A DNA stretch of 64,000 nucleotides from Nannocystis bainbridge (GTDB lineage: Bacteria > Myxococcota_A > Polyangia > Nannocystales > Nannocystaceae). The stretch's first letter is position 1. Every line of letters starts with the position of its first letter. Shown here one piece after another: positions 1-62,490 of the stretch. The position numbers and the translations under genes are program-made. Where the stretch lies: contig NZ_JAQNDL010000001.1 in NCBI RefSeq assembly GCF_028368995.1, forward strand, positions 2,368,001-2,432,000, given 5' to 3'. The notes below the pieces were generated by a model. That model made no database searches and had not been told where the DNA came from. It was given only the letters and a program-made list of their open reading frames with translations.

Positions 1-512
1 AACGCCGACTCGGCCTCGGCGTGCTCGCCGAGCGCGAGGAAGATGCGTGCGCGGTTGAGGTAGGCGTCGCCGTACCATGCGCGTCGGGCCAGCGCCTGTT
101 GCAAGTCCTCGAGGCCGCCGCGCGGGTCGCCGGCCTTGACCCCGCGCAGCCAGCCGCGCAGGTTCCACACCTCGGCCCAGTCGGGCCGCCGCTGCAGCGC
201 CGCCTCGACCGGCACCAGCGCCTCGGCTGGCTGGCCGACGGCCACGCACGCGTCGGCGAAGTTGTAGAGCGCCGCGGTGGTGTCGGGTGCGGCGGCCACA
301 GCGTCGCGCAGCAGGTCGAGGCCCTGTCCCATCGCTTCTGGCCGATGAGACAGGCTCGTCGTCAGCAGCCAGCCGGCGTAGTTGAGCGCCCCGGCGTGGC
401 GCGGGTCGAGCTTGATCGCCGCCTCGAAGGCGGCCAGCGCCGCGTCGACCTCACCGGCCCGGGCCCGCCGCTCGCCCTCGGCGTACGCTTCGTCGGCTGT
501 CTTGAAGGACAT
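1..512 (-). CDS. Tetratricopeptide-repeat protein (3' end runs off the window)
   Basis: Hand translation from ATG at 512: MSFKTADEAYAEGERRARAGEVDAALAAFEAAIKLDPRHAGALNYAGW...ALYNFADA...PDWAEVWNLRG...YGDAYLNRA, i.e. repeated TPR-type motifs. Not in the ORF track because no stop falls inside the window. Confidence 0.75.
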   Translation of the reverse strand, partial: MSFKTADEAYAEGERRARAGEVDAALAAFEAAIKLDPRHAGALNYAGWLLTTSLSHRPEAMGQGLDLLRDAVAAAPDTTAALYNFADACVAVGQPAEALVPVEAALQRRPDWAEVWNLRGWLRGVKAGDPRGGLEDLQQALARRAWYGDAYLNRARIFLALGEHAEAESA

Positions 513-522
513 GTCCAAGCGC

Positions 523-1233
523 TCAGGAGAAGGGTAGGGCCGACGCGCCGATCACCAGCGGGTGGGCGGCGATGATCGCGGCGGCGATCAGGAGGGCCAC
601 GCCGGCGCGCCACAAACCGATCTCGCCGGGCACGAAGCTGTTGCGGCCGGCGGCGATGGCGGCGAACGGGACGATCGAGGTGACGGCGGCGTAGCGCTGC
701 CAGCCGATCGGGTCCCGGCGGGCCCGCTTGCGGTCGATGCTGAACATGCCGGCCAGCGCCGGCACGGCGATCGCTGCGAACAGCACCAGCGACGCCACGT
801 CCCCGTTGGCGGCCGCGTGCGTCGCGGCCCACAGCACGAAGCCCCACAGCAGCGGGTGACGGGTGATTCGCAAGATCCCGCGGGCCGGCGTCGGGGCTTG
901 CAGCACGCGCTCCATGCCCACCGACGTCGGGTTCGGCGTCGTCAGCGAGCCGACGATCAGCAGCAGCGCGACCGGCATGACGACCAGCGGCGTCCACAAC
1001 GCCGCCAGGCCCGGCACCCACAGGTCGAAGTTGACCCCCGGGGCGGCGGCGCTGCGGTAGGCCATCACCAGCGCGACCAGGCCGGCGAGCGACAGCAGGG
1101 AGAACATGCCCTGGAAGCCAGGTTCGCGGATCTCGGCGACGAGGACCCGCCGCAGCGGTGAACCGGCGACCACGAGGTGGAGCAGGATCCACGCCCCGGC
1201 GGTCACGATCAGCGCGGTGAGCTCCGGCGTCAT
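523..1233 (-). CDS. NnrU-family integral membrane protein
   Basis: 236 aa with multiple TM segments; motifs GILRITRHPLLWG, HAAANGD and TSIVPFAAI match the NnrU family. Confidence 0.8.
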   Translation of the reverse strand: MTPELTALIVTAGAWILLHLVVAGSPLRRVLVAEIREPGFQGMFSLLSLAGLVALVMAYRSAAAPGVNFDLWVPGLAALWTPLVVMPVALLLIVGSLTTPNPTSVGMERVLQAPTPARGILRITRHPLLWGFVLWAATHAAANGDVASLVLFAAIAVPALAGMFSIDRKRARRDPIGWQRYAAVTSIVPFAAIAAGRNSFVPGEIGLWRAGVALLIAAAIIAAHPLVIGASALPFS

Positions 1234-1263
1234 GCCGGGGACTGTCGCACGCCCCCGAGGGGC

Positions 1264-2817
1264 CTAGAAGAGCTTCCAGCCCTTCTTGGCGGGCGCTGCT
1301 GGCGGCGTGGGTGCGGCGGGCTTGGGCGCTTCGGGGGCCTTGGTGGTAGGCGCGATCGCAGCGTCCGGCGTCGGCGCGCGCGGGCTCGAGCCCGACGGCG
1401 GCTTGCCGGGCCCGCCATGCTTGGCGAGCAGCGCCCTCGCGCGGGCCAGCAGCGGCTGGCCGCGCGCCGGATCGACCATCGCCACGAAGCAGGCGTAGCC
1501 GTGCACGGCGGCCAGCACGTCGCCGCCCTTGCCCCAGCGCTTGCCCGCGGGCCCGTCCTTCTCGATCTGGAACAGCGTCGCCCGGAACTTGCGCAGCTCG
1601 TCGCGGGCCACGCTCGGCTTGTCGTTGACGACGATGCCGGTGACCTCTTGCCGGCGACCGCGACGCATTACCCGCGTCTTGTCCGGGTGCACCACGAAGC
1701 CCTCGTGCGCGACGATGTCGGCGACCCCGCGCAGCAGCTTGCCGACGCGCTTGCTCTCGGCCGCCTCGCCGCGGCCGCTGAACGTGAGGTCGTCGGCGTA
1801 GCGGGTGTAGACGAAGCCCAGCGCCTGCGCGAGCCCGTGCAGGCGGCTGTCGAGGCGGCGGCACAGCAGGTTGGTGATCGCCGGGCTGCACGGCGAGCCC
1901 TGCGGCAGGTAGCGCTGCCCGCGGGCGACGAACCAGGTCGTGCCGTCGAGCGCGACCTCGTCGACGTCCGGCTCGGTGCAGATCAGCGCCAGCGTCGTCG
2001 CCACCGACTCGCTGTAGCCGAGGTGGCGGATGGCGCCCTTGACCCGCGGGAACGACACCGTCGGGAAGAAGTCCTTGAGGTCGAGGTTGACGACCACGTC
2101 GGCGCCGACGTGGGGCTTGGCGTTGGAGACGATCGAGCGCCCGGCGACGAACCCATGAGCGTGCGGGTCGACGTTCAGCTTGGCGAAGATGTGCTCGAGC
2201 GCCCACGTCTGGGCCCGCTTGAGGCGGGGCATCGGCGCGGAGATCAGGCGGAAGCCGCCTGTCTTTTTGGGCAGGAGGAAGCGGCGGTAATGCGAGACGC
2301 GCGAGACCTTGCGGTCGTAGGCGAGGAAGCGCAGCGCCTTGACCTCGACGCCGATCGCCTTGGCCAGCTCCTCGGGCGTGGCGAGCAGCGGCAGGCCCGC
2401 TTGCTTCAGCGTCTCTGCGTCGGCTGTCCTGTGGGACATGCCCCCGGAGACATCCACGCCGAGGTGGAGGATCTCGCCGGCCTTGCGCGCGGCCCACTTC
2501 TGGGCCCGCTCCTGGCGCTCACGCTCGCGCCGGGCCTTCGTCTCCTTCTGCTTGCGCCGCGACTCGAGCAGCCGGGCCTTGCGCTGCTCGGCGATCAGGA
2601 CCTTCTCGTTGTAGAGCTTGCGCGACTTCTCGCGCAGCTCGGCGAGCTGGCGCTCGAGCTCGCCGCGGCGCCGAATCTCCTCGGCCGGGTCGTGCGGCAC
2701 CGTTCCTTGCGCCGGCCAGAACCCGAGGCGAACCATCTCCTCGAGGATCACTTCCTCCTTGGAGGTGCTGCGGATCCGCTCGTACAGGGCTTCGCGGGTT
2801 GTCGGTTGGCCGGCCAT
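1264..2817 (-). CDS. Retron-type reverse transcriptase with a long charged N-terminal extension
   Basis: 517 aa with KKTGGFRLISAP, AHGF, region X NAKPH (NAxxH), DLKDFFPTV, LPQGSPCSP, YTRYADDLTFS and region Y QEVTGIVVN (VTG). Confidence 0.95.
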   Translation of the reverse strand: MAGQPTTREALYERIRSTSKEEVILEEMVRLGFWPAQGTVPHDPAEEIRRRGELERQLAELREKSRKLYNEKVLIAEQRKARLLESRRKQKETKARRERERQERAQKWAARKAGEILHLGVDVSGGMSHRTADAETLKQAGLPLLATPEELAKAIGVEVKALRFLAYDRKVSRVSHYRRFLLPKKTGGFRLISAPMPRLKRAQTWALEHIFAKLNVDPHAHGFVAGRSIVSNAKPHVGADVVVNLDLKDFFPTVSFPRVKGAIRHLGYSESVATTLALICTEPDVDEVALDGTTWFVARGQRYLPQGSPCSPAITNLLCRRLDSRLHGLAQALGFVYTRYADDLTFSGRGEAAESKRVGKLLRGVADIVAHEGFVVHPDKTRVMRRGRRQEVTGIVVNDKPSVARDELRKFRATLFQIEKDGPAGKRWGKGGDVLAAVHGYACFVAMVDPARGQPLLARARALLAKHGGPGKPPSGSSPRAPTPDAAIAPTTKAPEAPKPAAPTPPAAPAKKGWKLF

Positions 2818-4870: not shown

Positions 4871-7800
4871 GCTGCACCTGTCCCTTCGTCCGCACCGGCG
4901 GCTGACGGATCTCGATCGGCAACGGCACGTCGCCGAAGCGCTGGCGGACCCCGACCATGGCGATCACGCTGGCCGCCCGGTCGCCGATCGCCATCGTCAA
5001 GCTCTGGCGGGTCATCAGCGCGGCGACCAATTGCGCGGCCTCGGGGCTCTTCTCCGCCTCGGCCGTCAGGAACCGGAACACCCGCGCCTTGGCGATCCGG
5101 CCGCGGTTGACCCGCGACAGCACGCCGAGGAAGTACGGCTCGAGCTCGCGCAGGCGCTCGATCGAGCCGGCCGCGTATTGCTCGAGGTAGTTGGTGGCGA
5201 ACAGCTGCACGTCGGCCGACGGGTGCTCGCTGAGGCGGCGCAGGTAGTCGAGGCCGTGCTCCTCGCGGAAGCAGCGGGTGATCATCTCGCGCCCGAACGC
5301 CTGCACGTCGGCGCGCACCGAGTCGGCGATCGCCACCAGCACGTCGGGCGGGAAGTCGGCCGGCTGCAGGCGCTCGCGGAAGAACTCGAAGGCGAACGCG
5401 CGCGAGTCGTCCCACTTGGCGTCGAGGATCCGGATCGCGTGCGGCAGCTCGCGCCCGATCCGCGCGACGTTGCGGTCGAAGAAGCTCCACGCCGCCTGGC
5501 GCACCGAGAGGATCTCGTGGCTGGCCAGGCGCGCGACCTCGGCGACGTCGAGGCTGTCGGGGTCGACGTTGCGCGCCAGCAAGATCCCGCCGAGCTCCTG
5601 CGCCGCGGAGGCCTTGGCCCGCAGGAGGCGCATGACGAGCTCCTTGTCGACGGAACCGAGGCCCTGCTCGAGGTCGCTCTTGAGCAGGCGCAAGACGAAG
5701 CTGTGCACGCCCTCGTGGGTCTCCTTGACCAACAGCGTGCCGATCAGCGGGGCCACGATCGCGGCGGCGAACCGCGGGTCGCGGGCGGCCAGGCGCTGGA
5801 CCACCGGGCGGATCGCGTCGCGCTGGTCGACGTGGGCCGAGGTCAGGAAGGCCAGCATCAGCCCACCGCGGTCGACGAGCACGCTGTCGGGCAGCTCGCC
5901 GAACAATCTGATGCCGAGGCTGCGCACCGCGGCGTGCTTGCTCTCGACCGCGAGCGCGGCGATGAGCTGCTCGGGCAGGTCCTCGGGGCGCGTGTCGTGG
6001 TTGAGCAGGATGTTGGCCGCCAGCAGCTGCGCCCCCTCGAGCGGGTGGGCGACCAGGTCGACGACGACGTTGAGGCCGACGCCGCGCAGCGGCCGGGCGA
6101 ACGCCCGCATCAGCGTCTCGCCCACGTCGGCCGCGATCGCGTCGGCGTCCGGCGTGGCCGGTAGCGCCAGCACGCCGGCCACGGCCCGGGCGATCAGCGT
6201 CGACGCGGCCGCGGCCGCCAGCGGCACGCCCTGCAGCAGCACGCGGGCGTAGGCGCGGGTGTCGGCGTGGGCCGAGAACAGCAGCGCGAGCACCAGGTCG
6301 TGGGCCCCGGCGAAGCGGGCCCGGTCGGCGTCGATCCACCCGTGGGCCAGCTTGCGCGCGGCCGGGACGGCGCAGCTCGCCACCGCGGCGACGAGCGCGA
6401 GGTCGGGGTTGTCGGCGTCGTAGCGGGCCCGGGCCAGCTCGAAGCCGAGCTGCGCGGTGACCTCGAACGGCCGCTCGAGCAGCATGACGATGCCGTCGAC
6501 GTCGAGCTGGGTCAGGAAGTCCTTGTTGTCGCGGATCGCCCTGACCGCAAATTCATGTACCAAAGTACATGTGCTTTCGGACAGGAGGTGCATGAGGCCG
6601 AACGGGACCTGGTCCCAGACCTTCGGGAACGCCTCCTCGCGGCTGGCGGGGGCCGGGTCGCCGGGCTTGTAGTTGGCGCGGCAGCGCCAGGTGGCGCCGC
6701 GCACCCGCGGCTCGTAGCGCGGGCTGTTGCCGCCGTAGAGGATGGCGTTGAAGGCGTGGTAGGCGGCGAACCGGTCCCAGCGGGTGACCTTGTTCTTGCG
6801 CGTGCTGTAGCTGTAGCGCGTGGCCGTCTTGACCTCCTGGCCGTCGGCGTCGGAAAACGGCAGCAGCACGCCGACCGCCAGCTTGACGTAGCCCATCGCG
6901 TCGCCGGCCTCGGCCAGGCGCCGCAGCGAGCGGAAGGCCCGGCGGCGCAGGTAGTCGCGGGTCTTGCTCGAGTAGGCCAGGCGCGAGTCGGGCCGCTTCA
7001 GCTCCTTGCTGACGTCGGTCCAGCGGCCGCCGCCGAGGAAGATGGTGCGGCGCGCACCGAAGGCCGCCGGGGTCTTTTCGATGCGATAGGCGATGAGGCC
7101 GAACACCTCGGCGTCGCCGCGGACCTCGGCCATCTTGAGCAGGTGGCGGACGTGACGGAAGTTGCCGACCTGCAGGGGGATCGTGCGCAGGCCGGCGAGC
7201 AGGCCCGGGCGCACGGTGTCGTCGTCGATGCGATAGATGTCCTCGAGCGCGGCGCTGTCGCCGGCGGCCAGGGCGGCCAGCAGCACGGCGGTGAACGCCT
7301 CCGGATCGCCCCTGCCGGCGAACTCGCGCAGCGCGGGCGGCAGAGCGGCGCGCGCCCGCGCGGCCACGGCCTCGCGCAGCTCGTCGCTCCAGCCGCGCAG
7401 CATCTCGAGCTGCATGCGCATCACCATGTCGCTCTTGCTCGCCCGCGGGATGAACAGCTTCAGCGCCTCGTCGAGGCTGCTGGGCTGCAGGCCAGGTTCG
7501 TTGCGGGCCCGCGCGAGCGCGGTGAAGGTGTCGGCGCCGCCGCAGCGGGCCAGAGCCCAGGCGATGCAGTAGTCGAGCATTTGATCGCCGGAGCCGATCA
7601 GGCGGATGAGGTGCGGCACGGCCTCGCGCAGGCGGTACTCGCCGGCCCGCCAGACCACCCGCGCCGGCTTCCACGGCTTGCGCCCGCCGCCGCCCTGCAA
7701 ACGGGCGAGGATCGCCTCGGCCGGGGTGGTGTAGGCGGGGCTGGCCTTTCGGCCAGGTGCCGCCGCGGCCGTCTCGCTCGGCGCGCCGCCCAGCGTGCGC

Positions 7801-8057: not shown

Positions 8058-8066
8058 GGCACTCCC

Positions 8067-8244: not shown

Positions 8245-9855
8245 ATGTCGCGCCTCCGCCTCGCGTCCATCGTGGCGCTCGTCCTGCTGCCCGGGTGCGC
8301 CGACGACCCGGCCAGCGGCACCGAGTCCCTGCCCTCGTCGACCGGCACCAGCGGCGACCCCTCAAGCTCGACCACGACGGACACCGAGGCCGCGCCGACG
8401 ACCTCGACCGGCTCGTCGACGACCGGCGACGAGGAGCCCGCGCTCGCCCCCGCCCGGGGGATCCGCCTGACCCGCGCGACCCTCAACCAGGGCGTGCAGG
8501 TCGAGCTGGTGCGCGACGGCGTCGAGGTGCCGAGCAGCGAGCTCGGAGCGCGGCTGCTGGCCGGGCGCAAGGCGGTGATGCGCGCCGACTGGCTGCTGCA
8601 CGCCGGCTTCGCGCCGCGCGAGATCGTCGGCCGCCTGACCCTCTGGACCCCCGACGGCGAGACCCGCGTCGACGACTTCAAGGTGATGGTGAGCGGGCCG
8701 AGCAACGACGGCGACCTGTTCACGACCTTCTCGTGGGAGCTGCCGGCGGCGTTGGTCGGGCCGGGCCTGCAGTACCGCATCGAGGCGCTCGAGCCCGATC
8801 CGTCGCTGGCCACCGGCGAGGTCAGCGACCCGCCGCCGATCCTGCCGCTGGCCGGCCGCGGGACGCTGCAGATCGAGGACGCGGCGATGGAGATCAAGGT
8901 CGAGCTGGTGCCGCTGAAGCACGTCATCGACGGCATGACGTGCACGCCGACGATCACCGACGCGGACCTCGAGGCGATGCGGGTGTGGCTCGAGCAGCAC
9001 AACCCGATCCAGCGCGCGGTGCTGACGGTGCACGAGCCGTGGGAGTACACGGCGACGATCGGCGCCGAGCCCAACGGGTTCGTGCCGATCCTGAGCAAGC
9101 TGAGCGAGCTGCGAGCCGCCGACGCGCCGGCCGACAACGTCTATTACTACGGCCTGATCGAGAGCTGCGACGGCTACCCGCCGGGGCTGCTGGGCCAGGC
9201 GGCGGGCATCCCCGACCAGGCGACGCCCGGCTATGCGTATCAGCGATTGGCGGTCGGTCGCTATCAATCGTCAGGGGCCGGCGCGCGCGACACGTTCGTG
9301 CACGAGGTCGGCCACACGCAGGGCCTCTATCACATCCGCTGCAGCGGCGGCGAAGCCGGGGTCGACCTCGACTACCCCTACCCCAACGGACGCATCGGTC
9401 GCTGGGGCTATGGGATCCACGACACCGGCATGCGCTCGCCGACGAGCTTCCGCGATTACATGAGCTACTGCTCGCAATCGTGGGTGTCGGACTTCGGGTG
9501 GGAGAAGACTTTTAATAATATTCGCGAGCTGACCTCGTGGGACGCGGGCGGCGCTCCGATCGATCCGTCGGCGCAGCCGATCGTGGTCGGCACGCTGATG
9601 AAGGACGGCAAGTCCCGCTGGTACACGACCACGGGGACCGTGCCGCTGCGCGGGCGGGCCGAGGACACCTTCGTCGAGTTCGCGGTCGACGGCGAGACGG
9701 CGCGCGAGCCGGCGGCGGCGCTGGAGATCCCCGACAGCGAGGCGACGCTGGTGGTCGCGGCCCTGCCGGCGGGGACTTTGAGCGGCCTGTCCTTCAGGAC
9801 AGGCGGCAAGCTGCGCGCGGCGGTCGGCGCCAGCCAGGTCGTGCGTCTGCACTGA
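8245..9855 (+). CDS. Lipoprotein zinc metallopeptidase (metzincin, M66-like)
   Basis: ATG at 8245, lipobox LPGC, Thr/Ser-rich linker, HEVGHTQGLYH (HExxHxxGxxH) and a downstream Met-turn DYMSY. Confidence 0.8.
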   Translation: MSRLRLASIVALVLLPGCADDPASGTESLPSSTGTSGDPSSSTTTDTEAAPTTSTGSSTTGDEEPALAPARGIRLTRATLNQGVQVELVRDGVEVPSSELGARLLAGRKAVMRADWLLHAGFAPREIVGRLTLWTPDGETRVDDFKVMVSGPSNDGDLFTTFSWELPAALVGPGLQYRIEALEPDPSLATGEVSDPPPILPLAGRGTLQIEDAAMEIKVELVPLKHVIDGMTCTPTITDADLEAMRVWLEQHNPIQRAVLTVHEPWEYTATIGAEPNGFVPILSKLSELRAADAPADNVYYYGLIESCDGYPPGLLGQAAGIPDQATPGYAYQRLAVGRYQSSGAGARDTFVHEVGHTQGLYHIRCSGGEAGVDLDYPYPNGRIGRWGYGIHDTGMRSPTSFRDYMSYCSQSWVSDFGWEKTFNNIRELTSWDAGGAPIDPSAQPIVVGTLMKDGKSRWYTTTGTVPLRGRAEDTFVEFAVDGETAREPAAALEIPDSEATLVVAALPAGTLSGLSFRTGGKLRAAVGASQVVRLH

Positions 9856-10447: not shown

Positions 10448-10542
10448 GCCGCTGTCTCTTCGGACATGGCTTTCAGGGCATGTTCGCAAGGACATGCTCT
10501 CGCGGGCATGTCCCGGGCGACATGCCCCGGGGGACATGCCCG
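10448..10542. repeat. Array of 14-bp-period CATG-centred units between convergent genes
   Basis: CATG at 10465, 10479, 10493, 10507, 10521 and 10535 (exact 14-bp period), plus a degenerate GCTG at 10451. Confidence 0.85.
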
Positions 10543-12042
10543 CTACGGCCGGAACAGGCCGACCCAGCTCTGCTGCTCGCCGGCGACCACCAGCACGCCG
10601 CCGACGTAGGCGGTCCCGTCGGCGCCGACGGCCGTGTCGTAGGTGACCACGTCGGGCGGCAGCAGGTCGGGGCTGGGGGCGCGGTGGCGGACCTGACAGC
10701 GGACCTCGGCGTCGCCGCCGAGGCGGGCGATCCATGCCTCGCGCCACTCGAGCTGGGCGACCTTGTCCTTGACGCGCATGCTGCCGGCCAGCACCGCCTC
10801 GCCGTCGGGCGTGAAGCCGGCGCCGTCGAGCTGCCACTGGTCGCCGTCAGTCTCGTAGTCGGCCCGCGAGCGCTCCCACAGCAGCTCGTTGTCGGGGCCG
10901 AGCTTGTAGACCCAAAAGTTGGACACCGCGCCCTGCAGGCGCACGGCGGTGTAGAGCACGTCGCCGGCGCCGTCGACCGCGACCCAGCCAGGACCGTGGT
11001 TGTGCACGCTGCCGTCGGCCAGCGGCGAGAACACCCACTCGGCCGGCCCGCCGTCGGCCGCGAACTTGAGCAGCACCGCCTCGCCGATGTTGTAGTCGAC
11101 GTACTCGCGGGCGCCGACGTAGATCGAGCCGTCGCCCGCGACGGCTATCCGCCCGGCGTCGTCGTTGGAGAACATGCCGTTGCCCGCGCCGCTCCACACG
11201 GTCGACCACACCTCGGCGCCGTCGCCCGCGGCCAGCTTGCCGACCCACACGTCAGCGCCGCCGGGCCCGTCGGTGACCTCGCCGGCGATCACCACGTCGC
11301 CGTCAGGCGCCAGCGCGATGCCGCTGGCGCTGTCGTCGCTCATCGGCTCGGCGCCGTCCTTGTCCATGGTCCAGAGCACGTGGCCGTCGGCGCCATCGAG
11401 CTTGATGGCGCGGATGTCGTCCTCGTCGGCGCCAGCGACCGTGGCGGCGACGTAGACGTGACCGTCGGCGTCGACCACCCCGTCGACCGGCGTGAGCCGG
11501 ACGTCGGCTGGGGCGAGCAGCACGTCCCACGCGAGCTGAGCGTCTGGCCCGTAGCGGAGCACCCGGGTGCGCGCGAGGCCGATCGTCTGCATGCCCTCCT
11601 CGTCGCTGGTGATCTCCCGCTGGCGAGCGATCGCCACGAAGCTGCCGTCAGGGGCCGGCGCGACCGCGACCACCCACAGCTCGGACTCGGCCGAGGGCGC
11701 GAGGGCGACGACCTCGCCGGCGCGCCCGCAGGGGATCCTGCAAGCGCTGTCGCAGCCGTCACCATCGTCAGTGTTGCCGTCGTCGCACTCTTCGCTGGCC
11801 TCGAGGTAGCCGTTGCCGCACACGGGCACGGGCGGGTCGAAGCCAGGATCGCCGCTGCTGGTGCTGCTGTCCGGCTCACCGGTGGTGGTCGGCGCGGTGG
11901 TGGCAGTCGACGTGCTCGTGCCCGCGCCCGTGCTGGTCGCGGTGGTGCTGCCGTCGTCGGTCGAACTCGCGGTGGTCGCCGCGGGATCGTTGCAGGCGCA
12001 GAACAGCGCGAGGAGGGCCCCGAAGCGGCGCGTATCGAGCAT
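10543..12042 (-). CDS. Lipoprotein with a myxobacterial cysteine-rich repeat (DUF4215-like) and beta-propeller-like repeats
   Basis: Signal peptide ending CAC, Thr/Ser linker, CGNGYLEASEECDDGNTDDGDGCDSAC, then repeated 'AVDxDGxVYVxG' blades. Confidence 0.8.
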   Translation of the reverse strand: MLDTRRFGALLALFCACNDPAATTASSTDDGSTTATSTGAGTSTSTATTAPTTTGEPDSSTSSGDPGFDPPVPVCGNGYLEASEECDDGNTDDGDGCDSACRIPCGRAGEVVALAPSAESELWVVAVAPAPDGSFVAIARQREITSDEEGMQTIGLARTRVLRYGPDAQLAWDVLLAPADVRLTPVDGVVDADGHVYVAATVAGADEDDIRAIKLDGADGHVLWTMDKDGAEPMSDDSASGIALAPDGDVVIAGEVTDGPGGADVWVGKLAAGDGAEVWSTVWSGAGNGMFSNDDAGRIAVAGDGSIYVGAREYVDYNIGEAVLLKFAADGGPAEWVFSPLADGSVHNHGPGWVAVDGAGDVLYTAVRLQGAVSNFWVYKLGPDNELLWERSRADYETDGDQWQLDGAGFTPDGEAVLAGSMRVKDKVAQLEWREAWIARLGGDAEVRCQVRHRAPSPDLLPPDVVTYDTAVGADGTAYVGGVLVVAGEQQSWVGLFRP

Positions 12043-12306: not shown

Positions 12307-13539
12307 CTAGCACTCGTTCTTGTCGCACGGCTCGACCGGCGCGACCGCGTTGCCGACCCCGATCGCGCACCAGTCGGGCATGCCGGCGGGGACCCCAAAC
12401 TCCTGGTAGGGCGACTCGCCGGGCGCGAGCCAGTACGGGTGGTCGAGGAAGAAGTCCCACAGCGGGGCGAACGCGGTCTCGCCCGGCTGGACCGGGAACG
12501 GCGGCGTCGAGTGGTTGCAGTTGTGGATGCACTCGAGCACGAAGTGACCGCCGGCCTCGAGGTTCTGCTCGAGGTCCTTCGAGGTCTGCTCGAAGTCGAT
12601 GACGATGCAGAAATCGTCGGGGCCGCCCCACAGCACCATCGCCGGCATCTTGCGGGCGGGGGCCGTCCACGGCTTGATGGTGCCGCCGCCTGTCCCTCCG
12701 GACAGGGACATGAACGACGAAAGGACGTCGCCGCGGCCGCCGGCGAGCTGGCTGGTGAACAGGGCGCCGGCGCTGACGCCGGTCGAGGCGACGCAGTCCT
12801 GGTTGACGCTGAACTGCTCGGCCACGCACGACAGCATGTCGTCGAAGAACTGGAACTCGGCCTGGAGGTCGGCGTCGCTGTCGATGACGGTGAACGGCCA
12901 CTTGAAGAGCAGGCCCTCGCGCGCCTCGGGGATGACGGCGATGAAGCGCTTCTCATTGACCGCGTTCTGCACGTCGCCGCGGTCGTAGAAGTCCTGGGCG
13001 TCGCCGCCGAGCCAGTGCCACAGGAAGATCACCGGCAGGCGCTCGTCGGGCGCCGCGTCCTCGGGGGCGATGACGAGGAACTGACGCTCGACGGTGCCTC
13101 CGCCGAGCTGCTGCGGCAGGACGTTGTACGCCTGGCCCTCCATGTAGCCGACCTCGAGCGCGGGACAGGTGCCGCCGTACGCGGCGATATCGGGCGCGAG
13201 GGTGGCGCCGTCGGGCGGGGCGTCGTGGCAGCGCAGGAACTCGCCGCCGCTGCTGCCCATGTCGACCTTGGGAGGCTCGCCTGTGGTGCCGGTCTGTGGC
13301 TCCGAGGTGGTCGGTGGGCCGCTCGTGGTCGTCGTCTCGCCCTCGCTCGCGGTGCCGTCGTCGGTCGCCTGCGTGGTCGGCGTGGTGGTCGGCGCGCCCG
13401 TCGCCGCGGTGCTCGTGCTCGTGGTGGCGTCGGAGGTGCCGGCGCTGGTCGCCTCGGTGTCGCCCACGAGGTCGCCGCAGGCCAGGGTGGCGAGGACAGG
13501 AAGACAGAGGAGCCCACGACGCATGATGCCCGCCATCAT
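12307..13539 (-). CDS. Lipoprotein alpha/beta hydrolase (PHB depolymerase/esterase-like)
   Basis: Lipobox TLAC, Thr-rich linker, LPVIFLWHWLGG, nucleophile elbow GVSAG, and later D and H residues. Confidence 0.75.
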   Translation of the reverse strand: MMAGIMRRGLLCLPVLATLACGDLVGDTEATSAGTSDATTSTSTAATGAPTTTPTTQATDDGTASEGETTTTSGPPTTSEPQTGTTGEPPKVDMGSSGGEFLRCHDAPPDGATLAPDIAAYGGTCPALEVGYMEGQAYNVLPQQLGGGTVERQFLVIAPEDAAPDERLPVIFLWHWLGGDAQDFYDRGDVQNAVNEKRFIAVIPEAREGLLFKWPFTVIDSDADLQAEFQFFDDMLSCVAEQFSVNQDCVASTGVSAGALFTSQLAGGRGDVLSSFMSLSGGTGGGTIKPWTAPARKMPAMVLWGGPDDFCIVIDFEQTSKDLEQNLEAGGHFVLECIHNCNHSTPPFPVQPGETAFAPLWDFFLDHPYWLAPGESPYQEFGVPAGMPDWCAIGVGNAVAPVEPCDKNEC

Positions 13540-46452: not shown

Positions 46453-48153
46453 ATGCTGCGGGCCGCCGTGCCGCCCGCCCCGCCGCATCCTGGCCCGTCT
46501 GGAGCCCGATCCGCCGGGGCAGCGGGGCCGCTCGAAGCCGCTTCGAACATGCCCCTCGGGACAGGTCCTGAGGGCCAGGCAGGACCGTCCGGGGCGACTT
46601 CCTCACCCATGTCCCTCGGGACAGGTCCCGGAGGACAGGCCGGTCCGCCCGCGAACATGTCCCTCAGAGCAGGTCCTCGAGGACAGGCCGGTTCGGCCTC
46701 GTCTTCCAACCTGTCTTTCAGGGCAGGTCCAAGAGAGTCGAGGCTCGCCCCTTCCGCCTCGGCCTCCAACATGTCTCTCGGGGCAGGTTCCAGCGCTCGC
46801 GCCCCGCGCCCGCCCGACCTGCTCGCCCCGCACCTGCCGCGCGAGACCGAGCCCGCGGGGCCGCCCGACCTGCTCGCCCCGCACCTGCCGCCGGTGACCC
46901 GCCAGCTGAGCCTGCGCCCGCCCGACCTGCTGCCGCCGGGCGCCGGTCCCGGGCCCGTGCCGCCGGCCGCCCCGCTGTCGGCGCAGTGCCCGGCCTGCAG
47001 CCTGCACGCGCTGGTCGCGGTCCACCTGCGCCGGGCCGCGGGCGGGCGCTGGCGGCAGCTCGGCGCCCGCGAGCGACCTGTCCCCGAGGACCTGACCCTC
47101 GATACATGTCCGGTGTGCTTCGGGGTGTGGCTCGACCACGGCGAGCTCGACCAGCTCGGCGACGCCGAGGTCGACCCTGCCTTCCTCAAGACCGTGGTCG
47201 GTCGCTCGGCCGGCCGCATGTGCCCGCGCGGCCACGGCTTCATGAACGAGCACCTGCTCCCGGGCATGCTCCGGACCCCCGTCGACCGCTGCCCGCGCTG
47301 CCGCGGGATCTGGCTCGACGGCGACGAGCGCCACGCCCTCGCCCGCTCGACCACCCCGTCCGGCCAGGAGGACCCCAAGGTCCTGCTGGCCAAGCGCGGC
47401 GTCCAGTGGGCCGCCCAGGTCCTGACCCAGCTGCCGATCGAGGTCGACAACCCGCGGCGAGGGATCCCCTGGGTCGTGCTCGGCCTCGGCGCCCTGCTGC
47501 TCGGCTGCTACGTCGCCTCGGTGCTCGGCCTCGTCTACGCCCGCGAGTACGCGCTGGTGGCCGGCAAGGTGCTCGCCGAGCCGGCGCGCATCTACACCGT
47601 CCTCACGCACACGCTGTTCCACGCCGACTGGTTCCACCTGCTGTTCAACCTCTACTTCCTGTACGTGTTCGGCAGGAACGTCGAGCACGTGTTCGGCCGC
47701 CGGCGCTTCCTCATCCTGTACTTCGGGGCAGGTGTGTTCGGCGGGCTGCTGCAGCTGGTCCTGACCCGCGCCACCGGCACGCCGGTGATCGGCGCCTCGG
47801 GGGCGATCGCCGGGGTGTGCGGCGCCTACCTGGTGACCTTCCCGCGCGCGCGGCTGCTGCATACGCTGCCGCTCGTGTACGTGCCGCTGAAGATCCCGGC
47901 GTGGATCTACCTCGGGGCGTGGATCGGCTTCCAGGCGGCGATGGCGGCCCTGTCCGACGCGCAGGAGTTCGCGTGGTCCTCCCACCTCGGCGGCTTCGCG
48001 CTCGGGGCCGCGCTCGCGCTGCCGGTGCTGCGCAGCGTCCGGCGCGAGGTCGGCGAGGCGGTGCGGGTCAAGTCGGCGGCGGCGATCTTCGGCAAGGTGC
48101 CGCGCCGGCGCGGGCCGCCGATCGTGGTCCAGCCGGTCCGGAGGTCGCCGTGA
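46453..48153 (+). CDS. Rhomboid intramembrane serine protease with N-terminal TFIIB-type zinc-finger domains
   Basis: CPAC...LDTCPVCFGVWLDHGEL and CPRGH...VDRCPRCRGIWLDGDE; rhomboid HADWFHLLFN, GASG and SHLGG. Start uncertain because the N-terminus is low-complexity. Confidence 0.85.
   Translation: MLRAAVPPAPPHPGPSGARSAGAAGPLEAASNMPLGTGPEGQAGPSGATSSPMSLGTGPGGQAGPPANMSLRAGPRGQAGSASSSNLSFRAGPRESRLAPSASASNMSLGAGSSARAPRPPDLLAPHLPRETEPAGPPDLLAPHLPPVTRQLSLRPPDLLPPGAGPGPVPPAAPLSAQCPACSLHALVAVHLRRAAGGRWRQLGARERPVPEDLTLDTCPVCFGVWLDHGELDQLGDAEVDPAFLKTVVGRSAGRMCPRGHGFMNEHLLPGMLRTPVDRCPRCRGIWLDGDERHALARSTTPSGQEDPKVLLAKRGVQWAAQVLTQLPIEVDNPRRGIPWVVLGLGALLLGCYVASVLGLVYAREYALVAGKVLAEPARIYTVLTHTLFHADWFHLLFNLYFLYVFGRNVEHVFGRRRFLILYFGAGVFGGLLQLVLTRATGTPVIGASGAIAGVCGAYLVTFPRARLLHTLPLVYVPLKIPAWIYLGAWIGFQAAMAALSDAQEFAWSSHLGGFALGAALALPVLRSVRREVGEAVRVKSAAAIFGKVPRRRGPPIVVQPVRRSP
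46545..46790. repeat. Five degenerate blocks of the 14-bp-period motif
   Basis: Cores at 46548/46562/46576, 46608/46622/46636, 46656/46670/46684, 46710/46724 and 46770/46784. Confidence 0.8.
46810..46932 (+). repeat. 30-bp direct repeat (two full copies plus a partial third) encoding PPDLLAPHLP
   Basis: CCGCCCGACCTGCTCGCCCCGCACCTGCCG at 46810 and 46861, partial copy at 46918. Confidence 0.8.
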
Positions 48154-51299: not shown

Positions 51300-51472
51300 G
51301 CCGGCGGAACACTGTCATGCGCCCGCGAGGTCGGCGAGCGACATGTCCCCTGTGACATGTCCAAAGAGTCATGAACTCTCGCGGCGCCCGTGTCTCGCCT
51401 GGAGCCGGCGCCGGCCCGCTTCTGGCGCTCCGGCCCAACCCGTGCGACCCTGCCACCGTGAACAATAGACTT

Positions 51473-53218: not shown

Positions 53219-53237
53219 AGCTCCGGGGGTGTCCGAT

Positions 53238-53561
53238 CGGGCATGTCTGAAGGGACATGCTCGTTCGAGCATGTCCTTCGGCGCGATGCTCGGACGCACA
53301 TGTCCCTTCGGGCATGCCTGAAGCGACATGTCGCTTCGGGCATGCCAATCGCTGGCATTCACGAAGAAAATTGTCCAACGGGCATGCCCGGAGCGACATG
53401 CCCCTTCAGGCATGCCCCTCGATGGCATTCAGCAAGAGACTTGTGCAACGGGCATGCCTGGAGAGACGCGCCTGTTCGGGCATGTCCCTCGATGGCATTC
53501 ACGAAGAGACTTGTCGGACGGGCACGCCTGAAGCGACATGCCCCTTCGGGCATGCCGCTCG
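53238..53561. repeat. 70-bp tandem repeat (~3.6 copies) built from 14-bp palindromic subunits
   Basis: Units start at 53309, 53379, 53449 and 53519; each carries a variant of the palindrome GGCATGCCTGAAGCGACATGTCGCTTCGGGCATGCC. Further 14-bp units at 53242/53256/53270. Lies between convergent genes. Confidence 0.9.
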
Positions 53562-53571
53562 TCTCGGGGCC

Positions 53572-54255
53572 TCACGGCTGCGCCGGTTGGGCGCCGCCGG
53601 CGGGGGCCGCCTGCACGGCGCCTGCGGGTCCGGGCGCGGGCGCGGGCGCCTCGGCGATCGCGGGCGTCACCGGCGCGGCCGGGGGCGCGGCGACCTGGGT
53701 CGGCGGGGCCGAGGGCACCACCGCCGGCGGGGTGGCGACCACCACCGGCGCGACCGGGGCCGCGTTCACCTGCGGCACGGCCGGCAGCGGGCGCGCCGTG
53801 GTCGAGGCCGCGCCGCCCATGACGCCGTCGTAATGCCCGAGATAGCTCCACTCGGGGTCGAACAGCATCGTCGCCACCACGAACTCGCCGGTCTTGGGCC
53901 GCACGCGGATCTCGAACGCGTGCCCGTCCTTGGCCGCGCGATCGGCGACGGTCAGCGGGTCGGGCTGGGCGTCCTTGTCGAGGTCGATGTGGCTGAACTG
54001 CCCCGGCTGCTTGTTCAGCGCCTCCTGCAGCTTGTCGGCCGTCTTCAGGCGGTTGAAGCTCACGAGCATCGACACCGGCTCGACCGCGAGGTCGGCGGAC
54101 AGCGGGCGATCGACGCCGGTCGGCGCCGGGGCCCCGGCCATCGACGCCCGGGTGAAGGTGGCGTCCTCGTCTCCGGATGGGTCGACCGGCTTGCCGCACG
54201 CGACGGCGAGGACGGCGAGGACCAGGGCTGCGCTCCGAGCTGTACTTTCGAACAT
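53572..54255 (-). CDS. Hypothetical lipoprotein with a Pro/Ala-rich tail
   Basis: ATG 54255 after GGAGG; lipobox AVAC; IDLDKDAQPD EF-hand-like loop. Confidence 0.7.
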   Translation of the reverse strand: MFESTARSAALVLAVLAVACGKPVDPSGDEDATFTRASMAGAPAPTGVDRPLSADLAVEPVSMLVSFNRLKTADKLQEALNKQPGQFSHIDLDKDAQPDPLTVADRAAKDGHAFEIRVRPKTGEFVVATMLFDPEWSYLGHYDGVMGGAASTTARPLPAVPQVNAAPVAPVVVATPPAVVPSAPPTQVAAPPAAPVTPAIAEAPAPAPGPAGAVQAAPAGGAQPAQP

Positions 54256-54424: not shown

Positions 54425-55933
<1,509 letters not shown>

Positions 55934-56668: not shown

Positions 56669-58083
56669 TTGCCGGGCTTCTCCTCGGCGTCGGCCATGAT
56701 CTTGTCATAGACCTGGCCGCGCGGCGTGCCCTCGTCGACCAGCTTCTGCGCCTTGGCCTTCTCCTCCTCGATGAGGGTCTTGAAGCCTTCGTAGGGCTGG
56801 GCGCCGGACAGGAAGCGGCCGTTGACGAAGAACGACGGGGTGCCGCCGCTCTTCAGCCGGTTGGCCACCGCCTCGTCGTCCTTGACCATCTGCTCGGTCT
56901 CGGCGGCGGCGAGGTCGAGCTCGAACATCGCCACGTCGAGGCCGAGCTCCTGGGCGTGCTTCTTGACTGTCTCTTCGGACATGTCCGAAGGGCTCTGGAA
57001 CAGGCGGTCGTGCATCTCCCACGCCTTGCCCTGGCGGTGGGCCGCCAGCATCGCCCGGGCGCCGACGCGCGCCTGCGGGTGCATCGCCAGCGGGCGCTGA
57101 CGGAACACGATGCGCACGTCATTGGGGTAGTTCTGCTTGACGTCGGCCAGGGCCGCGTTGACGCGCTTGCAGAACGGGCACTGGAAATCGCTGAACTCGA
57201 CGATCGTGACGAGCGCGTCGTCGGGACCGAACTGCGGGCGGGCGTCGAGCGGCACGCGGTAGGTCTTGCTCGGATCGGGGCCGTCGTCGCGCTGGCTCGG
57301 GGCCTTGCCGGGCCCGCCGCCGCCGCGCTGGGCCTTGGCGTCCTTCATCATCGCGCCGTAGACCTCGGCGCGCGCGGTGCCCTGGCTCTCGAGCTGGCGG
57401 GCCTGCTCGCGCTCGTACTCGAAGATCTCGCGCCACTGCTTGGCCGGCAGCGAGCCCGAGTAGGGGCGGCCGTTGACCAGGAAGTACGGCGTACCGGTCG
57501 CGCCGGCCTTGCCGCCGGACACGTAGTCGCTGTCGATCGCGGCCTTGGCGGCGTCGCTGGTGCGGTCGGCGTTGAACTTGGCGAGGTCGAGGCCGAGCTG
57601 CTGCGCGTGGGCCTCGAAGGTCTTGTCGTCGAGCTTCTTCTGGTTGCCGAACAGGAGGTCGTGCATCTCCCAGAACTTGCCCTGCTGGTGCGCAGCCCAC
57701 GCCGCCTGCGACGCGGGCGGCGCCAGGTTGTGGCCCGGCAGCGGGTAGTGCTTGAAGATCAGGCGCACGTCGCCCTCGTAGGTGCCCATCGCGTCCTTCA
57801 GCGGGTCGGTGACCTTGGCGCAGAACGGGCACTGGAAGTCGGAGTACTCGATCACGGTGACGAGCGCGTCGTTCGGGCCCAGCTGCGGCTCGTCGCCGCG
57901 CAGATCGGCGCGGTAGCGGTCGCCCTGCTCGAGCTTGGCCGAGGGCACGAAGAAGCGGTCGCGGACCCACTGCCCGGCGTAGAAGCCGACCCCGATGGTC
58001 GCCGCGAACCCGAGGACCGCGACCAGGATCGAGGTGGTGGATCGCTTGTTGGGGGTGGGTGCAGGCGTCGTGGCGTCGGACAT
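56665..58083 (-). CDS. DsbA-family protein with two thioredoxin-fold domains
   Basis: ATG 58083; TM; two SDFQCPFC motifs and two GTP cis-Pro loops. Confidence 0.9.
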   Translation of the reverse strand: MSDATTPAPTPNKRSTTSILVAVLGFAATIGVGFYAGQWVRDRFFVPSAKLEQGDRYRADLRGDEPQLGPNDALVTVIEYSDFQCPFCAKVTDPLKDAMGTYEGDVRLIFKHYPLPGHNLAPPASQAAWAAHQQGKFWEMHDLLFGNQKKLDDKTFEAHAQQLGLDLAKFNADRTSDAAKAAIDSDYVSGGKAGATGTPYFLVNGRPYSGSLPAKQWREIFEYEREQARQLESQGTARAEVYGAMMKDAKAQRGGGGPGKAPSQRDDGPDPSKTYRVPLDARPQFGPDDALVTIVEFSDFQCPFCKRVNAALADVKQNYPNDVRIVFRQRPLAMHPQARVGARAMLAAHRQGKAWEMHDRLFQSPSDMSEETVKKHAQELGLDVAMFELDLAAAETEQMVKDDEAVANRLKSGGTPSFFVNGRFLSGAQPYEGFKTLIEEEKAKAQKLVDEGTPRGQVYDKIMADAEEKPGK

Positions 58084-60312: not shown

Positions 60313-60393
60313 GGGGCTCTGTGTCTGTAGTTTGCTGGGTGGTTGAAAGAACATGTCACAAAAACCATGTCCAAAAGGACATGTGGGGAGTCG

Positions 60394-61830
60394 TCACTGG
60401 TGGAGATCGGCGCTCGGGAACTGGTTGGGAGGGATCGCCTCCGCTTCCAGGATCGTGCGCACGACGGTCTCGCGGGCGGCGCCGGCGGCGATCCGCTCCT
60501 GGGCGTGCGCGAGCTCGGTCGCGACGTCGGCGGCGAGCGCCTCGGCGCCGCGAAAGCCGTCGACATAGCGACCGTTGAGGAAGATCGCCGGGGTGGCGTC
60601 GAGCCCGAGCCTGCGGGCGTATACGAGGTCGTCGCGGACGACCTGGGCGACCTCGGCGCTGTCGAGGTCGGCGAGGAAGCGGGCCTCGTCGAGGCCGAGC
60701 TCGCGGGCGATCGCCGCGTAGGTGCGGCGGCCGAGCCGGGGCGCGGTGAACAGCTTGTCGGCGAAGTCCCAGAAGCGGTTCTGGCGGTCGGCGGCGACCA
60801 CCGCCCGGGCGGCGCTGTCGGCCCCGGGGTGGATCGGCAGCGGCAGCTGGCGGTAGGCGATCCGGACGTCGTCCGGATAGCGCCGCCGCAGCTCGGCGAT
60901 GCCCTCGGTCGCGGCCTTGCGACAATACGGGCACTCGAAGTCCATGAACGCGACCAGCAGCACCGGCGCGTCGGCGGGCCCGAGCGTCGGCGCGACGCCG
61001 GCGTCGACGGCATAGCGCTTGCCCGCCTCGGCCCGCTGCGGAGGCGGCGCCTCGGCGGCCTTGAACCGCTCGGCGAGCAGCCGCCGCTGCTGCGCCGTGG
61101 CGTCGTCGACCGCCAGCGGAGCGGTCACCGCCGCGTCCATGACGGCGCCATAGAGGTCGGCGCGGGCGGTGCCCTCGCGCAGGCGCGCCTGGGCGGCGAC
61201 GATCTCCTCGTCGATCAGCGCGTGCCAGGCCGCCTCGTCGCGGAAGCCGATCAGCGGCCGGCCGTTCACCAGCGCCACCGGGCTGAAGTAAATCCCGAGC
61301 TCCACCGCCTGGCGGCGATGGCGGATCCGCGTGCCCGAATAGACCCCCGCGTCGAGGTCGTCGAGGAAGCGCGGCACGTCGAGCCCGAGCGCCTCGGCGT
61401 CCGCCTTGAGCGCCGCGCGGTCGAACTTCAGCGTGTCGTAGAGCCGGCGGTGCATCGGCCAGAACTGGCCCTGCGCCCCGGCGGCCAGCGCGGCCTCGGC
61501 GGCCCGCTCGCCGTCGGCGAAGCCGGGCAAGGTCTGGCTGCGGAACACCACCCGCAAGTCGTCGCCGTAGTCCTCGACCAGGTGATCGAGGACCTTCCAC
61601 GTGCGCGCGCACGGCGGGCAGGCGTAGTCGGAGAAGACGACGATCGTGACGAGCGGCTCGGCGCCGCCGAGCGCGTGCTCGTCAGGGTCGAGGTCGACGC
61701 GGTAGCGCTGCGACGGCGCGGCGACCGGCGCGGCGGATGATTCAGGAGCGCTCGGGGAGCACTCGCAGGCTGCGTTGCTCAGCGCCAGGCCGAAGGCGAC
61801 CTGACCGAGCCAGAGATGTGGGACACGCAT
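60394..61830 (-). CDS. Divergent DsbA-family protein with two domains
   Basis: ATG 61830; SDYACPPC and MDFECPYC with FSP/ATP loops. Confidence 0.85.
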   Translation of the reverse strand: MRVPHLWLGQVAFGLALSNAACECSPSAPESSAAPVAAPSQRYRVDLDPDEHALGGAEPLVTIVVFSDYACPPCARTWKVLDHLVEDYGDDLRVVFRSQTLPGFADGERAAEAALAAGAQGQFWPMHRRLYDTLKFDRAALKADAEALGLDVPRFLDDLDAGVYSGTRIRHRRQAVELGIYFSPVALVNGRPLIGFRDEAAWHALIDEEIVAAQARLREGTARADLYGAVMDAAVTAPLAVDDATAQQRRLLAERFKAAEAPPPQRAEAGKRYAVDAGVAPTLGPADAPVLLVAFMDFECPYCRKAATEGIAELRRRYPDDVRIAYRQLPLPIHPGADSAARAVVAADRQNRFWDFADKLFTAPRLGRRTYAAIARELGLDEARFLADLDSAEVAQVVRDDLVYARRLGLDATPAIFLNGRYVDGFRGAEALAADVATELAHAQERIAAGAARETVVRTILEAEAIPPNQFPSADLHQ

Positions 61831-61956
61831 GAGGGGACCGTCTCGAACACCCGGAGGGCGCCGCCGAGGCGCGCAGCGCCGGCTCCCGCGTGCAGGTGCA
61901 CGAGGCACCTGCAGCCTCTCGGGCGCGACCCAAAGCCTCCGGCCGACCCGAGCGGA

Positions 61957-62490
61957 CTACACGGGCGCGACGCGAGGCGGGGGTGCTTCGGGACAGGTCG
62001 TTCGGGACAGCAGCGGCGGGTCGTCGCGCGGGCGCGCGGCCGTGAGCGCCACGCGCTGCGGCGACCACTCGTCGCGCAGGAGCGCGGCGACCGCGGCACT
62101 CGAGGGCCCGAGCAGGTCGGGCGGGGCCCGCGGCGGCAGACCGCCGCGCTGGAGCTTGCCGCAGGTCTCGTCGGTCGGGTCGCACACGGCCCGCTTGAAC
62201 AGCACCTCGAGCAGGCGCGAACAGGAGCCGCGCGACAGCTTGAGGACCGACGGGTCGACGACCAGGTCGGCCAGGAGATCGCCGCCGCACAGGACCTCGG
62301 CGTCCGGGTCGTCCTCGTCGCCGCAGAATTCCGCGGCGCCGAGCAGCTCGACCAGCCGCAGGTGAATGTCGCTGCGCAGGTCGGGGGTGCCCGGAACCGC
62401 GGCCTCCGCGCTCGATGCGGCCACGGCCGCGCCCAGCCAAAGGCTGAGCACGACGAGGCAGCGCAAGAAGCTGGCGAACACGGCAGGCAC
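61957..62490 (-). CDS. Hypothetical exported protein
   Basis: GTG 62490, signal-like N-terminus, several Cys, ends PPPRVAPV. Confidence 0.5.
   Translation of the reverse strand: MPAVFASFLRCLVVLSLWLGAAVAASSAEAAVPGTPDLRSDIHLRLVELLGAAEFCGDEDDPDAEVLCGGDLLADLVVDPSVLKLSRGSCSRLLEVLFKRAVCDPTDETCGKLQRGGLPPRAPPDLLGPSSAAVAALLRDEWSPQRVALTAARPRDDPPLLSRTTCPEAPPPRVAPV

Follow-up and report, generated by a model that had tools for sequence, protein, structure and literature searches.

Short palindromic sequences that recur in very high copy number have been described in several bacterial lineages. In enterobacteria and pseudomonads, repetitive extragenic palindromic (REP) sequences are many-copy short palindromes that lie behind genes, are often clustered and have hairpin potential, while the MetJ met-boxes, the omega heptads and ParR/parC are examples of tandem operators bound cooperatively by dimeric repressors. 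The subject of this report is a 14-bp dyad-symmetric word, TGYCC-N4-GGRCA, which recurs head to tail in a window of 64,000 nucleotides (the whole stretch of DNA analysed, 70% G+C) from the myxobacterium Nannocystis bainbridge, and throughout its 11.05 Mb genome of five contigs (G000). The available portion of a study on the cyanobacterial highly iterated palindrome HIP1 (GCGATCGC) describes a palindrome that is 15- to 300-fold over-represented, conserved both inside open reading frames (ORFs) and in the sequence separating them, and of unknown function (PMC5861425), and neither tandem arrays nor a link to gene ends are part of the account given in that portion. Neisserial DNA uptake sequences (DUS) often form inverted repeats in terminators (PMC2397512, in the part available) and occur as dialects among related taxa (PMC3630211, likewise in the part available).

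In abundance, conservation and unknown function HIP1 is the closest described analogue of the Nannocystis word. Both are clade-wide palindromic words, and the features shared with HIP1 include over-representation against a codon-preserving expectation (here a genic excess of about 70-fold) and, within genes, conservation beyond controls. HIP1, however, is a continuous 8-mer, whereas the word described here is bipartite with a free and fast-changing 4-bp centre, is organised in 14-bp-phased arrays, is tied to gene ends and reaches, outside genes, about 9 times its genic density. REP sequences and the bacterial interspersed mosaic elements (BIME, or REPIN) built from them resemble it in being short palindromes of hundreds to thousands of copies that are clustered behind or between convergent genes and can form hairpins, but the present word shares ten fixed bases only, with free loops and an abutting 14-bp unit, it lacks defined ends, no transposase of the Y1 or REP-associated tyrosine transposase (RAYT) type was found in the genome, and 40% of its exact copies are genic. 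With the DUS of Neisseriaceae and the uptake signal sequences (USS) of Pasteurellaceae it shares thousands of copies, inverted repeats behind genes, and a clade-limited occurrence with dialect-like grading in abundance; on the other hand, DUS and USS are asymmetric and have been shown to act in transformation, whereas this word is its own inverted repeat and comes in phased arrays. Its short symmetric units abut exactly, as in the MetJ, omega and ParR arrays, suggesting head-to-tail cooperative binding, yet those arrays are few per replicon and lie in promoters or centromeres, as opposed to the roughly 2,800 promoter-avoiding arrays found here. Finally, the behind-gene position and hairpin potential recall Rho-independent terminators, but the arrays have no T-tract, their stem sequence is conserved, and the tRNA genes of the same genome use ordinary terminators.

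An earlier, sequence-only reading of the window had noted CATG-like cores recurring exactly 14 bp apart. This recurrence is real: in the window 14 pairs of RCATGY cores lie 14 bp apart, 9 pairs 28 bp apart and 5 pairs 42 bp apart, with 0-2 pairs at other distances, and in 200 dinucleotide-preserving shuffles of the window the count at 14 bp averaged 0.05 with a maximum of 1. Genome-wide, 2,363 pairs lie at 14 bp, whereas a distance of 13 bp yields 21 and one of 15 bp yields 26, and a decaying series of peaks follows at 28, 42, 56, 70 and 84 bp. The observation stands, but the motif, which that reading gave as GGACAKGTCC-N4, is better written TGYCC-N4-GGRCA. A logo of the core reads GGRCATGYCC followed by four almost free bases. 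Exact TGTCC-N4-GGACA is present in 1,987 genome copies and TGTCC-Nk-GGACA in at most 16 at every other k from 0 to 12, while the alternative arrangement, GGACATGTCC, has 956 copies, about half the exact count; since the inverted arrangement is the commoner one, we take it as the unit. The basic unit is therefore a 14-bp module, TGYCC-N4-GGRCA, repeated head to tail without gaps, and CATG cores appear every 14 bp because abutting modules create CATG at their junctions. Modules are scored below as matches to the 10 fixed positions of this consensus; if one mismatch is tolerated, the 4-bp spacer gives 8,730 modules versus 1,811 and 1,675 with 3- and 5-bp spacing.

Arrays were defined by a seed module of 9/10 and in-phase extension at 7/10, which gave about 2,790 arrays of at least 2 modules genome-wide: 1,365 of 2 modules, 604 of 3, 186 of 4, 319 of 5, 204 of 6, 75 of 7 and 35 of 8 or more. 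All five contigs carry them, at 22-104 per full 250-kb bin, which bears out the proposal that the motif is genome-wide. No origin- or terminus-like pattern was seen in the array distribution across the five contigs, and a parS- or matS-type chromosomal localisation is rejected because arrays occur on all of them. Nor are the arrays copies of one inserted element, as the sequence-only reading had also concluded: spacers and flanks are unrelated, no master copy emerged from 45 sampled long arrays, and the commonest spacer accounts for 3.5% of modules. Neighbouring spacers are identical in 3.3% of cases versus a null of 1.3%, and as they are otherwise unrelated the 14-bp phasing is not merely the result of recent slippage. 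Exact abutment together with unrelated neighbouring spacers points to a constraint on spacing itself.

The placement of modules relative to genes is strongly uneven. Gene coordinates throughout are those of a purpose-made codon-bias caller, with a Pfam check on 18 proteins only. Convergent spacers are the densest, at 8.11 modules per kb, ahead of same-strand spacers (2.53), divergent spacers (0.84) and genes (0.40), and the three successive 25-bp bins from 0 to 75 bp past stop codons hold 1,240, 1,451 and 1,149 modules, compared with about 50 in the bins before the stop and about 30 for the control with a 5-bp spacer (N5). Array starts show two modes relative to the stop codon, at -3, where TGA forms the first module bases, and at +2 (TGA-CA-TGTCC), with a median of 15 bp. 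Arrays are present in 649 of 1,387 convergent spacers, most commonly with 5 (169) or 6 (134) modules, and in a quarter of these array-bearing spacers the uncovered remainder is at most 22 bp. Counted by gene, 1,856 of 6,301 3' regions carry an array and 260 of 6,301 a strict hairpin-plus-T terminator; 115 of the 1,856 array-bearing regions carry both, and in 80 of these 115 the two overlap. In the window itself strict hairpin-plus-T terminators show no excess over shuffles, and in 500 arrays no T-tract follows the array (T fraction 0.11-0.23 from the second base on).

Predicted tRNA genes behave differently, with a module within 120 nt downstream in 9 of 102 cases and, judged by eye, classical hairpin-plus-T terminators behind them. 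Both tRNA genes of the window, at 62674-62746 on the minus strand and 63058-63130 on the plus strand (found by Rfam, and assigned to Gly and Asn by aragorn), are followed by a GC-rich hairpin and then a T-run, so ordinary intrinsic terminators exist in this genome and are used mainly after stable-RNA genes. Two dense clusters of predicted tRNA genes elsewhere in the genome, G000:C2:2556665-2559233 (about 29 genes in 2.6 kb) and C2:2356727-2357509 (about 7 genes in 0.8 kb), lie in AT-richer sequence without modules and are possibly mobile or phage-derived tRNA arrays. Within the window, a minus-strand gene run from about 25055 to 45317, which includes a 1,087-aa 4Fe-4S protein and a UbiA prenyltransferase (38320-41583 and neighbours), has very few modules inside; this scarcity agrees with the view that arrays mark where transcription units end and not where every gene does.

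Of the exact modules, 793 of 1,987 (about 40%) fall in called genes, in line with the earlier claim that the motif occurs both inside and between genes. That reading would have been refuted by the lack of an excess over amino-acid-preserving shuffles, and the excess is large: after removal of 30 nt from both ends, 7,086 well-supported genes hold 763 exact modules versus 10.5 (standard deviation 3.6) in 15 synonymous shuffles, which leave each protein and the overall codon usage unchanged, and the numbers for the corresponding N3 and N5 controls are 6 and 2. The genic mismatch spectrum singles out the bases that count. The third half-site base is tolerant, a C to T change at the fifth base is enriched 70-fold like the exact word, and from the third to the fifth half-site position every remaining single-base variant shows a 4- to 70-fold enrichment; the first-base T to C variant (CGTCC...GGACA / TGTCC...GGACG), in contrast, falls to 0.3 of the synonymous-shuffle expectation, a depletion that could reflect CpG-to-TpG conversion or selection. 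Genic modules are over-dispersed, with 43 genes holding at least 3, and the richest encode Ser/Thr kinases and TPR, WD40 and ScpA-domain proteins whose linkers are long and of low complexity. As a separate observation, the Ser/Thr kinases (e.g. G000:C2:1216680-1218890, locus L125) contain long tandem peptide repeats rich in Pro, Ser and Val, with a period of 12 residues in L125, and the DNA of these kinase repeats holds up to 10 exact modules, the recurring Asp-Met-Ser being encoded as GAC-ATG-TCC.

For an estimate of conservation 1.40 Mb was aligned between N. bainbridge and a related genome, G010. All ten fixed bases are kept in 49 of 77 genic modules versus 40.7% of 3,080 phase-matched controls (p=6e-5), and genic fixed bases have changed in 4.2% of cases versus 10.4% in controls (p=4e-10). 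Genic spacer bases, on the contrary, have changed more often (17.2% versus 9.8%, p=5e-5), and intergenic spacers have changed at 35.5% (p=8e-35 versus half-sites). Constraint on the half-sites is demonstrated for genic modules only, and the 4-bp centre appears from these alignments to be a hot spot everywhere, changing at about twice the rate of its surroundings. Among 649 orthologous spacers, 121 have arrays in both genomes, 53 in N. bainbridge only and 28 in G010 only. Where arrays stand at the same places in relatives the cores are conserved and the spacers different, as at 24.2, 51.3 and 60.4 kb of the window.

The taxonomic range of the word is narrow and graded. Compared with the 1,987 exact modules of N. 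bainbridge, seven other genomes of the genus have 333-2,090, genomes of two sister genera have 67-696 and 87-169, those of one further genus 5-20, and those of the other 13 genera at most 11, with a reversed-pattern control at 0-10 per genome. Double modules are found in 9 of 10 same-genus genomes versus 0 of 30 others, and the tandem form was not found in the one genome examined from each sister genus. In one sister-genus genome (G013), 40 of 50 exact modules lie inside ORFs, as called in 3-kb flanks by the crude caller trained on N. bainbridge. As the tandem form was found in the genus only and the word extends beyond it, the arrays look like a genus-level elaboration of an older word. A 5-mer autocorrelation of 20-kb loci from metagenome-assembled genomes of other Nannocystaceae, an insensitive measure, gave 13-bp peaks that are ordinary single tandem repeats.

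Taken together we tentatively favour, short of real confidence, a reading in which this is a dyad-symmetric, clade-specific DNA word that is read by a putative dimeric protein and accumulates at gene ends. The half-sites are independent of each other, with almost no covariation or strand asymmetry, so that a dimeric DNA-binding reader fits better than an RNA structure. Left/right complementarity within a module equals the null (0.109 versus 0.126) and the mutual information of pairing partners is at most 0.02. In modules between same-strand genes the sense-strand G-T and A-C combinations number 316/241, 129/107 and 197/179, and the loops show no strand preference (TTCG 106 versus CGAA 104); C-G complementary variants are in weak excess (385 versus 287 expected). 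The sequence-only reading had interpreted the motif as a genome-wide binding code for a protein that would wrap or polymerise on DNA, and this proposal is supported in part, its core agreeing with the reading favoured here; what it missed was the link to gene 3' ends and convergent pairs, the fast-changing centre and the quick change in copy number between species, and these three properties keep REP-like, terminator-like and molecular-drive readings alive.

Under this preferred reading, the word (about RCM-TGTCC-N4-GGACA-KGY) would be recognised as double-stranded DNA by a sequence-specific dimer, with one dimer per 14-bp module, abutting neighbours sharing the CATG junction, and bound dimers lying head to tail with successive ones rotated by about 120 degrees. 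It accumulates where it would leave expression undisturbed, namely behind stop codons and chiefly in convergent spacers, which arrays of 5-6 modules (70-84 bp) often occupy entirely, and also in genic stretches under weak constraint, disordered linkers among them, and it is scarce in divergent promoter regions. The role we would prefer is the marking or insulating of gene ends, for instance through topology or nucleoid structure. A clade-limited abundance, high in one genus and lower in two sisters, would be expected if the word co-evolved with a trans-acting factor. The abundance of the word, its strict phasing, its placement, the conserved ten fixed bases in genes and the free, quickly changing centre are demonstrated here, whereas we infer both the reading of the word by a protein and the function of the arrays.

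Several results weigh against this reading. No reader protein was found in N. bainbridge, searches for three families (PadR, RAYT and Vsr) having failed. Arrays fold strongly into hairpins (z -6.6 and -4.9), the 10440-10550 array far better than shuffles; good RNA folding is, however, expected of any run of palindromes. A minority of longer palindromes exists, with R_i:L_i+2 complementarity of 0.213 versus 0.126, and spacers are complementary at lag 2 in 4.3% versus 1.2% of cases, although such signatures of selection for base pairing are weak. Intergenic half-sites have changed at 17.2%, hardly different from the 18.4% of the flanking 60 bp (p=0.19). Turnover is fast, with 81 of 202 array-bearing spacers carrying an array in one genome only and the module count the same in 38 of 121 shared ones, and such turnover is unusual for conserved binding sites. 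Finally, a crude gene caller underlies all genic and intergenic counts.

A more ambitious version, which we regard as rather doubtful, would make the arrays a genome-wide gene-end code, in which a clade-specific DNA-binding or DNA-cutting protein polymerises in 14-bp steps at the ends of roughly a fifth of the genes and about half of the convergent pairs. In one variant a type IIA topoisomerase or an accessory factor would find strong sites in the modules, with the 4-bp centre as the staggered cleavage overhang and arrays relieving supercoiling where transcription units meet, which would make them a sequence-encoded counterpart of the gyrase-binding BIME-2 clusters.

Also unlikely in our view, but deserving serious weighing, is that the arrays are REP-like hairpins of 3' untranslated regions, RNA or extruded single-stranded DNA stem-loops whose loops are the 4-nt spacers and which terminate or dampen transcription or shield the 3' ends of mRNA, the stem held in common being due to a common hairpin-binding factor or to common descent. 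The pile-up of modules in the 75 bp past stop codons, the arrays that begin at the stop codon itself, their presence in nearly half of the convergent spacers, the rarity of strict terminators next to the far commoner arrays and the frequent overlap of the two would all be natural on this account, fast-changing spacers suit hairpin loops, and the folding of the 10440-10550 array, the weak C-G excess and the slight sense-strand G-T excess (316 versus 241) go in the same direction. Against this, arrays are not followed by T-tracts, stable tetraloops lack a sense-strand preference, pairing within modules is no better than between randomly paired half-sites, and A-C mismatches are almost as frequent as G-T. 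The tRNA genes use ordinary hairpin-plus-T terminators and seldom have a module nearby, multi-module arrays lie within real genes such as those of kinases, where a terminator would be harmful, and the loops are not conserved as in REP families. A RAYT origin in the strict sense is rejected: the word is a palindromic multi-copy repeat behind genes, but its copies do not align over their whole length and a cognate transposase is lacking, as the Y1/RAYT transposase (PF01797) has 0 matches in the N. bainbridge genome (90% complete), whereas control genomes do match. Intrinsic terminators as such are likewise rejected, there being no T-run after arrays and a strict terminator in just 115 of the 1,856 array-bearing 3' regions.

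We consider it improbable that the word is the product of a non-functional molecular drive, whereby cleavage of the centre by a sequence-specific enzyme (for instance a nuclease, a recombinase or a topoisomerase), or a repair bias such as biased mismatch repair, continually creates and reshuffles it and it persists where selection on the sequence is weak. Such a process would account for a centre that changes at about twice the rate of its surroundings (genic 17.2% versus 9.8%, intergenic 35.5% versus 18.4%), for quick copy-number turnover, for the word's location chiefly in DNA under weak constraint, namely gene-end spacers and disordered linkers, and for a first-base T to C class that is depleted as if converted. 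The genic fixed bases are nevertheless conserved beyond phase-matched controls, and weak constraint alone leaves the tenfold deficit of divergent versus convergent spacers unexplained. In the available part of the HIP1 study the same conservation pattern was taken as selection over replenishment, which counts against drive (PMC5861425). Very-short-patch repair of the Vsr type is rejected as the driving process on its distribution, with none in N. bainbridge, one in 7 same-genus genomes and none in 12 genomes of sister genera.

Least probable of all is a tag for self-recognition or DNA uptake of the DUS/USS type, recognised by a surface or periplasmic receptor or by a recombination system and sited behind genes as the cheapest location, which would agree with thousands of genic and inverted-repeat copies over all contigs and with the graded abundance across genera, but known uptake sequences are, in the portion of the source available, asymmetric 9-12-mers of which one copy suffices (PMC2397512), and exact 14-bp arrays, a free centre and a tenfold avoidance of divergent promoters would remain without explanation.

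The remaining known families can be dealt with briefly. The earlier reading knew of no description of the motif, and this has held up in the searches made. Rfam at gathering score recovered two tRNAs only from the window, and a blastn search of 53220-53570 against plasmid and phage records gave no match, on which result a plasmid or phage origin is rejected. In the literature searched (supplements lying outside its scope) no description of the word was found, the motif strings retrieving only papers on p53 response elements. A logo of 1,274 array boundaries revealed neither a terminal motif nor a target duplication, only a half-site that fades past the last module, and a miniature inverted-repeat transposable element or other master element is rejected for want of defined termini and target-site duplication and because spacers are unrelated. 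A PadR-type site, ATGT-N8-ACAT, fits the word, but the PadR family (PF03551) has 0 matches in N. bainbridge compared with 14 of 14 control genomes that do match, and a PadR operator is rejected in a genome without a PadR-family match. Unless it is a search artefact, the absence of PadR is in itself out of the ordinary for a soil bacterium with an 11-Mb genome.

Synteny with three related genomes (G001, G007 and G010) is maintained over the whole window; loci L005-L008 below are from four relatives. At 16 of the 22 loci that the sequence-only reading had listed, one module or more scores 9/10 or better, and the other six (1105, 23861, 42595, 48611, 54239 and 61994) reach 8/10 only, a score at the window background (159 modules with N4 versus 152 with N5). 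One of these six, the weak single module at 54241..54254 (8/10) near the start of gene 53572-54276, is nonetheless kept in all four relatives (L005-L008). The largest arrays lie between convergent genes. Seven abutting modules at 10453..10550 fill a 97-bp convergent spacer (stops at 10445 and 10543), whose stop-to-stop length, 10446-10542, is exactly that of seven modules. Overlapping this locus is a variable spot, 9858-10490, which in otherwise tight synteny measures about 0.6 kb here, whereas G001 has about 1.8 kb and both G007 and G010 about 8 kb at this position. At 53230..53552 about 20 modules in four arrays almost fill the convergent spacer between stops 53218 and 53572 and contain a 70-bp (5-module) tandem duplication that is present only in N. 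bainbridge among the genomes compared. The repeated block, three good and two degenerate modules, stands in about four tandem copies at 53287-53557, where the orthologous spacers of four relatives hold 2-6 modules only, and the duplication represents one event of module gain.

Arrays also lie at junctions between same-strand genes and at other gene ends. Three modules at 24221..24262 lie between same-strand genes, about 25-70 bp past the stop at 24291, and in three related genomes their half-sites are kept and their spacers different. A cluster of short arrays at 46536..46785 (46550-46577, 46610-46637, 46658-46685, 46712-46725 and 46772-46785), again between same-strand genes, varies in number and layout by species. 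Two modules at 51344..51371, 45 bp past the stop at 51299, precede a DUF2330 gene by about 100 bp, with cores kept and spacers differing in L005-L008, and two further sites are kept in the same loci, namely 44859..44886 (10/10 and 8/10), at a gene junction just downstream of the stop at 44901 (gene 44901-45317), and 60354..60381, where an exact module (60368-60381) follows a weak one 12 bp past the stop at 60394 (gene 60394-61830). The two modules at 498..525 (9/10 and 8/10) reach into a gene end, as the right half-site, GCTCA, includes the stop codon (TCA) that closes gene 523-1233 on the minus strand.

The remaining loci lie within genes. Two modules at 2425..2452 (10/10 and 9/10) within the minus-strand gene 1264-2817 are also present in G001, two weaker ones (8/10 and 9/10) lie at 6556..6583 in gene 4860-9098, and a single exact module, TGTCC-TTCA-GGACA, with complementary flanks stands at 9788..9801 in a weakly supported ORF. 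The single exact module at 12691..12704, in gene 12307-13539, is the same in G001 and G010 and altered in G007. Three modules (9, 8 and 9 of 10) at 21117..21158 fall in the gene of a CcmB/ABC-2-like membrane protein (20766-21545), and two at 47079..47106 in that of a rhomboid/zinc-ribbon protein (46771-48153). The three to four modules at 55519..55574 occupy the linker after the kinase domain of a Ser/Thr kinase gene; this linker resembles the module-rich linkers described above, and the modules are kept across species despite insertions and deletions in the adjoining sequence. Two modules (9/10 and 8/10) at 56968..56995 within gene 56665-58083 are almost invariant in L005-L008. This last gene belongs to an adjoining pair for thioredoxin/DsbA-domain proteins (56665-60312) that are internally and mutually repetitive, the second (58204-60312) having three DsbA-like domains, and segments of the two genes share 66-73% DNA identity. 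A second variable spot, 55934-56020, is an 87-bp convergent spacer here and measures 390, 1,967 and 177 bp in three relatives.

On a practical level, array copy number varies between species and may serve as a marker, and the arrays are relevant to the annotation of terminators or small ORFs in these genomes. If a protein reads the word, these myxobacteria would possess an explicit sequence-encoded mark on many of their gene ends, and the insulation of converging transcription units, or the organisation of chromosomes of 11-13 Mb, would become directly testable. Should the word rather be a footprint left by biased repair or cleavage, it would provide a clean natural case of molecular drive writing a bipartite palindrome into genes and spacers, with a central mutational hot spot that can be measured. 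On either reading, it would stand beside HIP1 as a second, independent hyper-abundant palindrome of unknown function.

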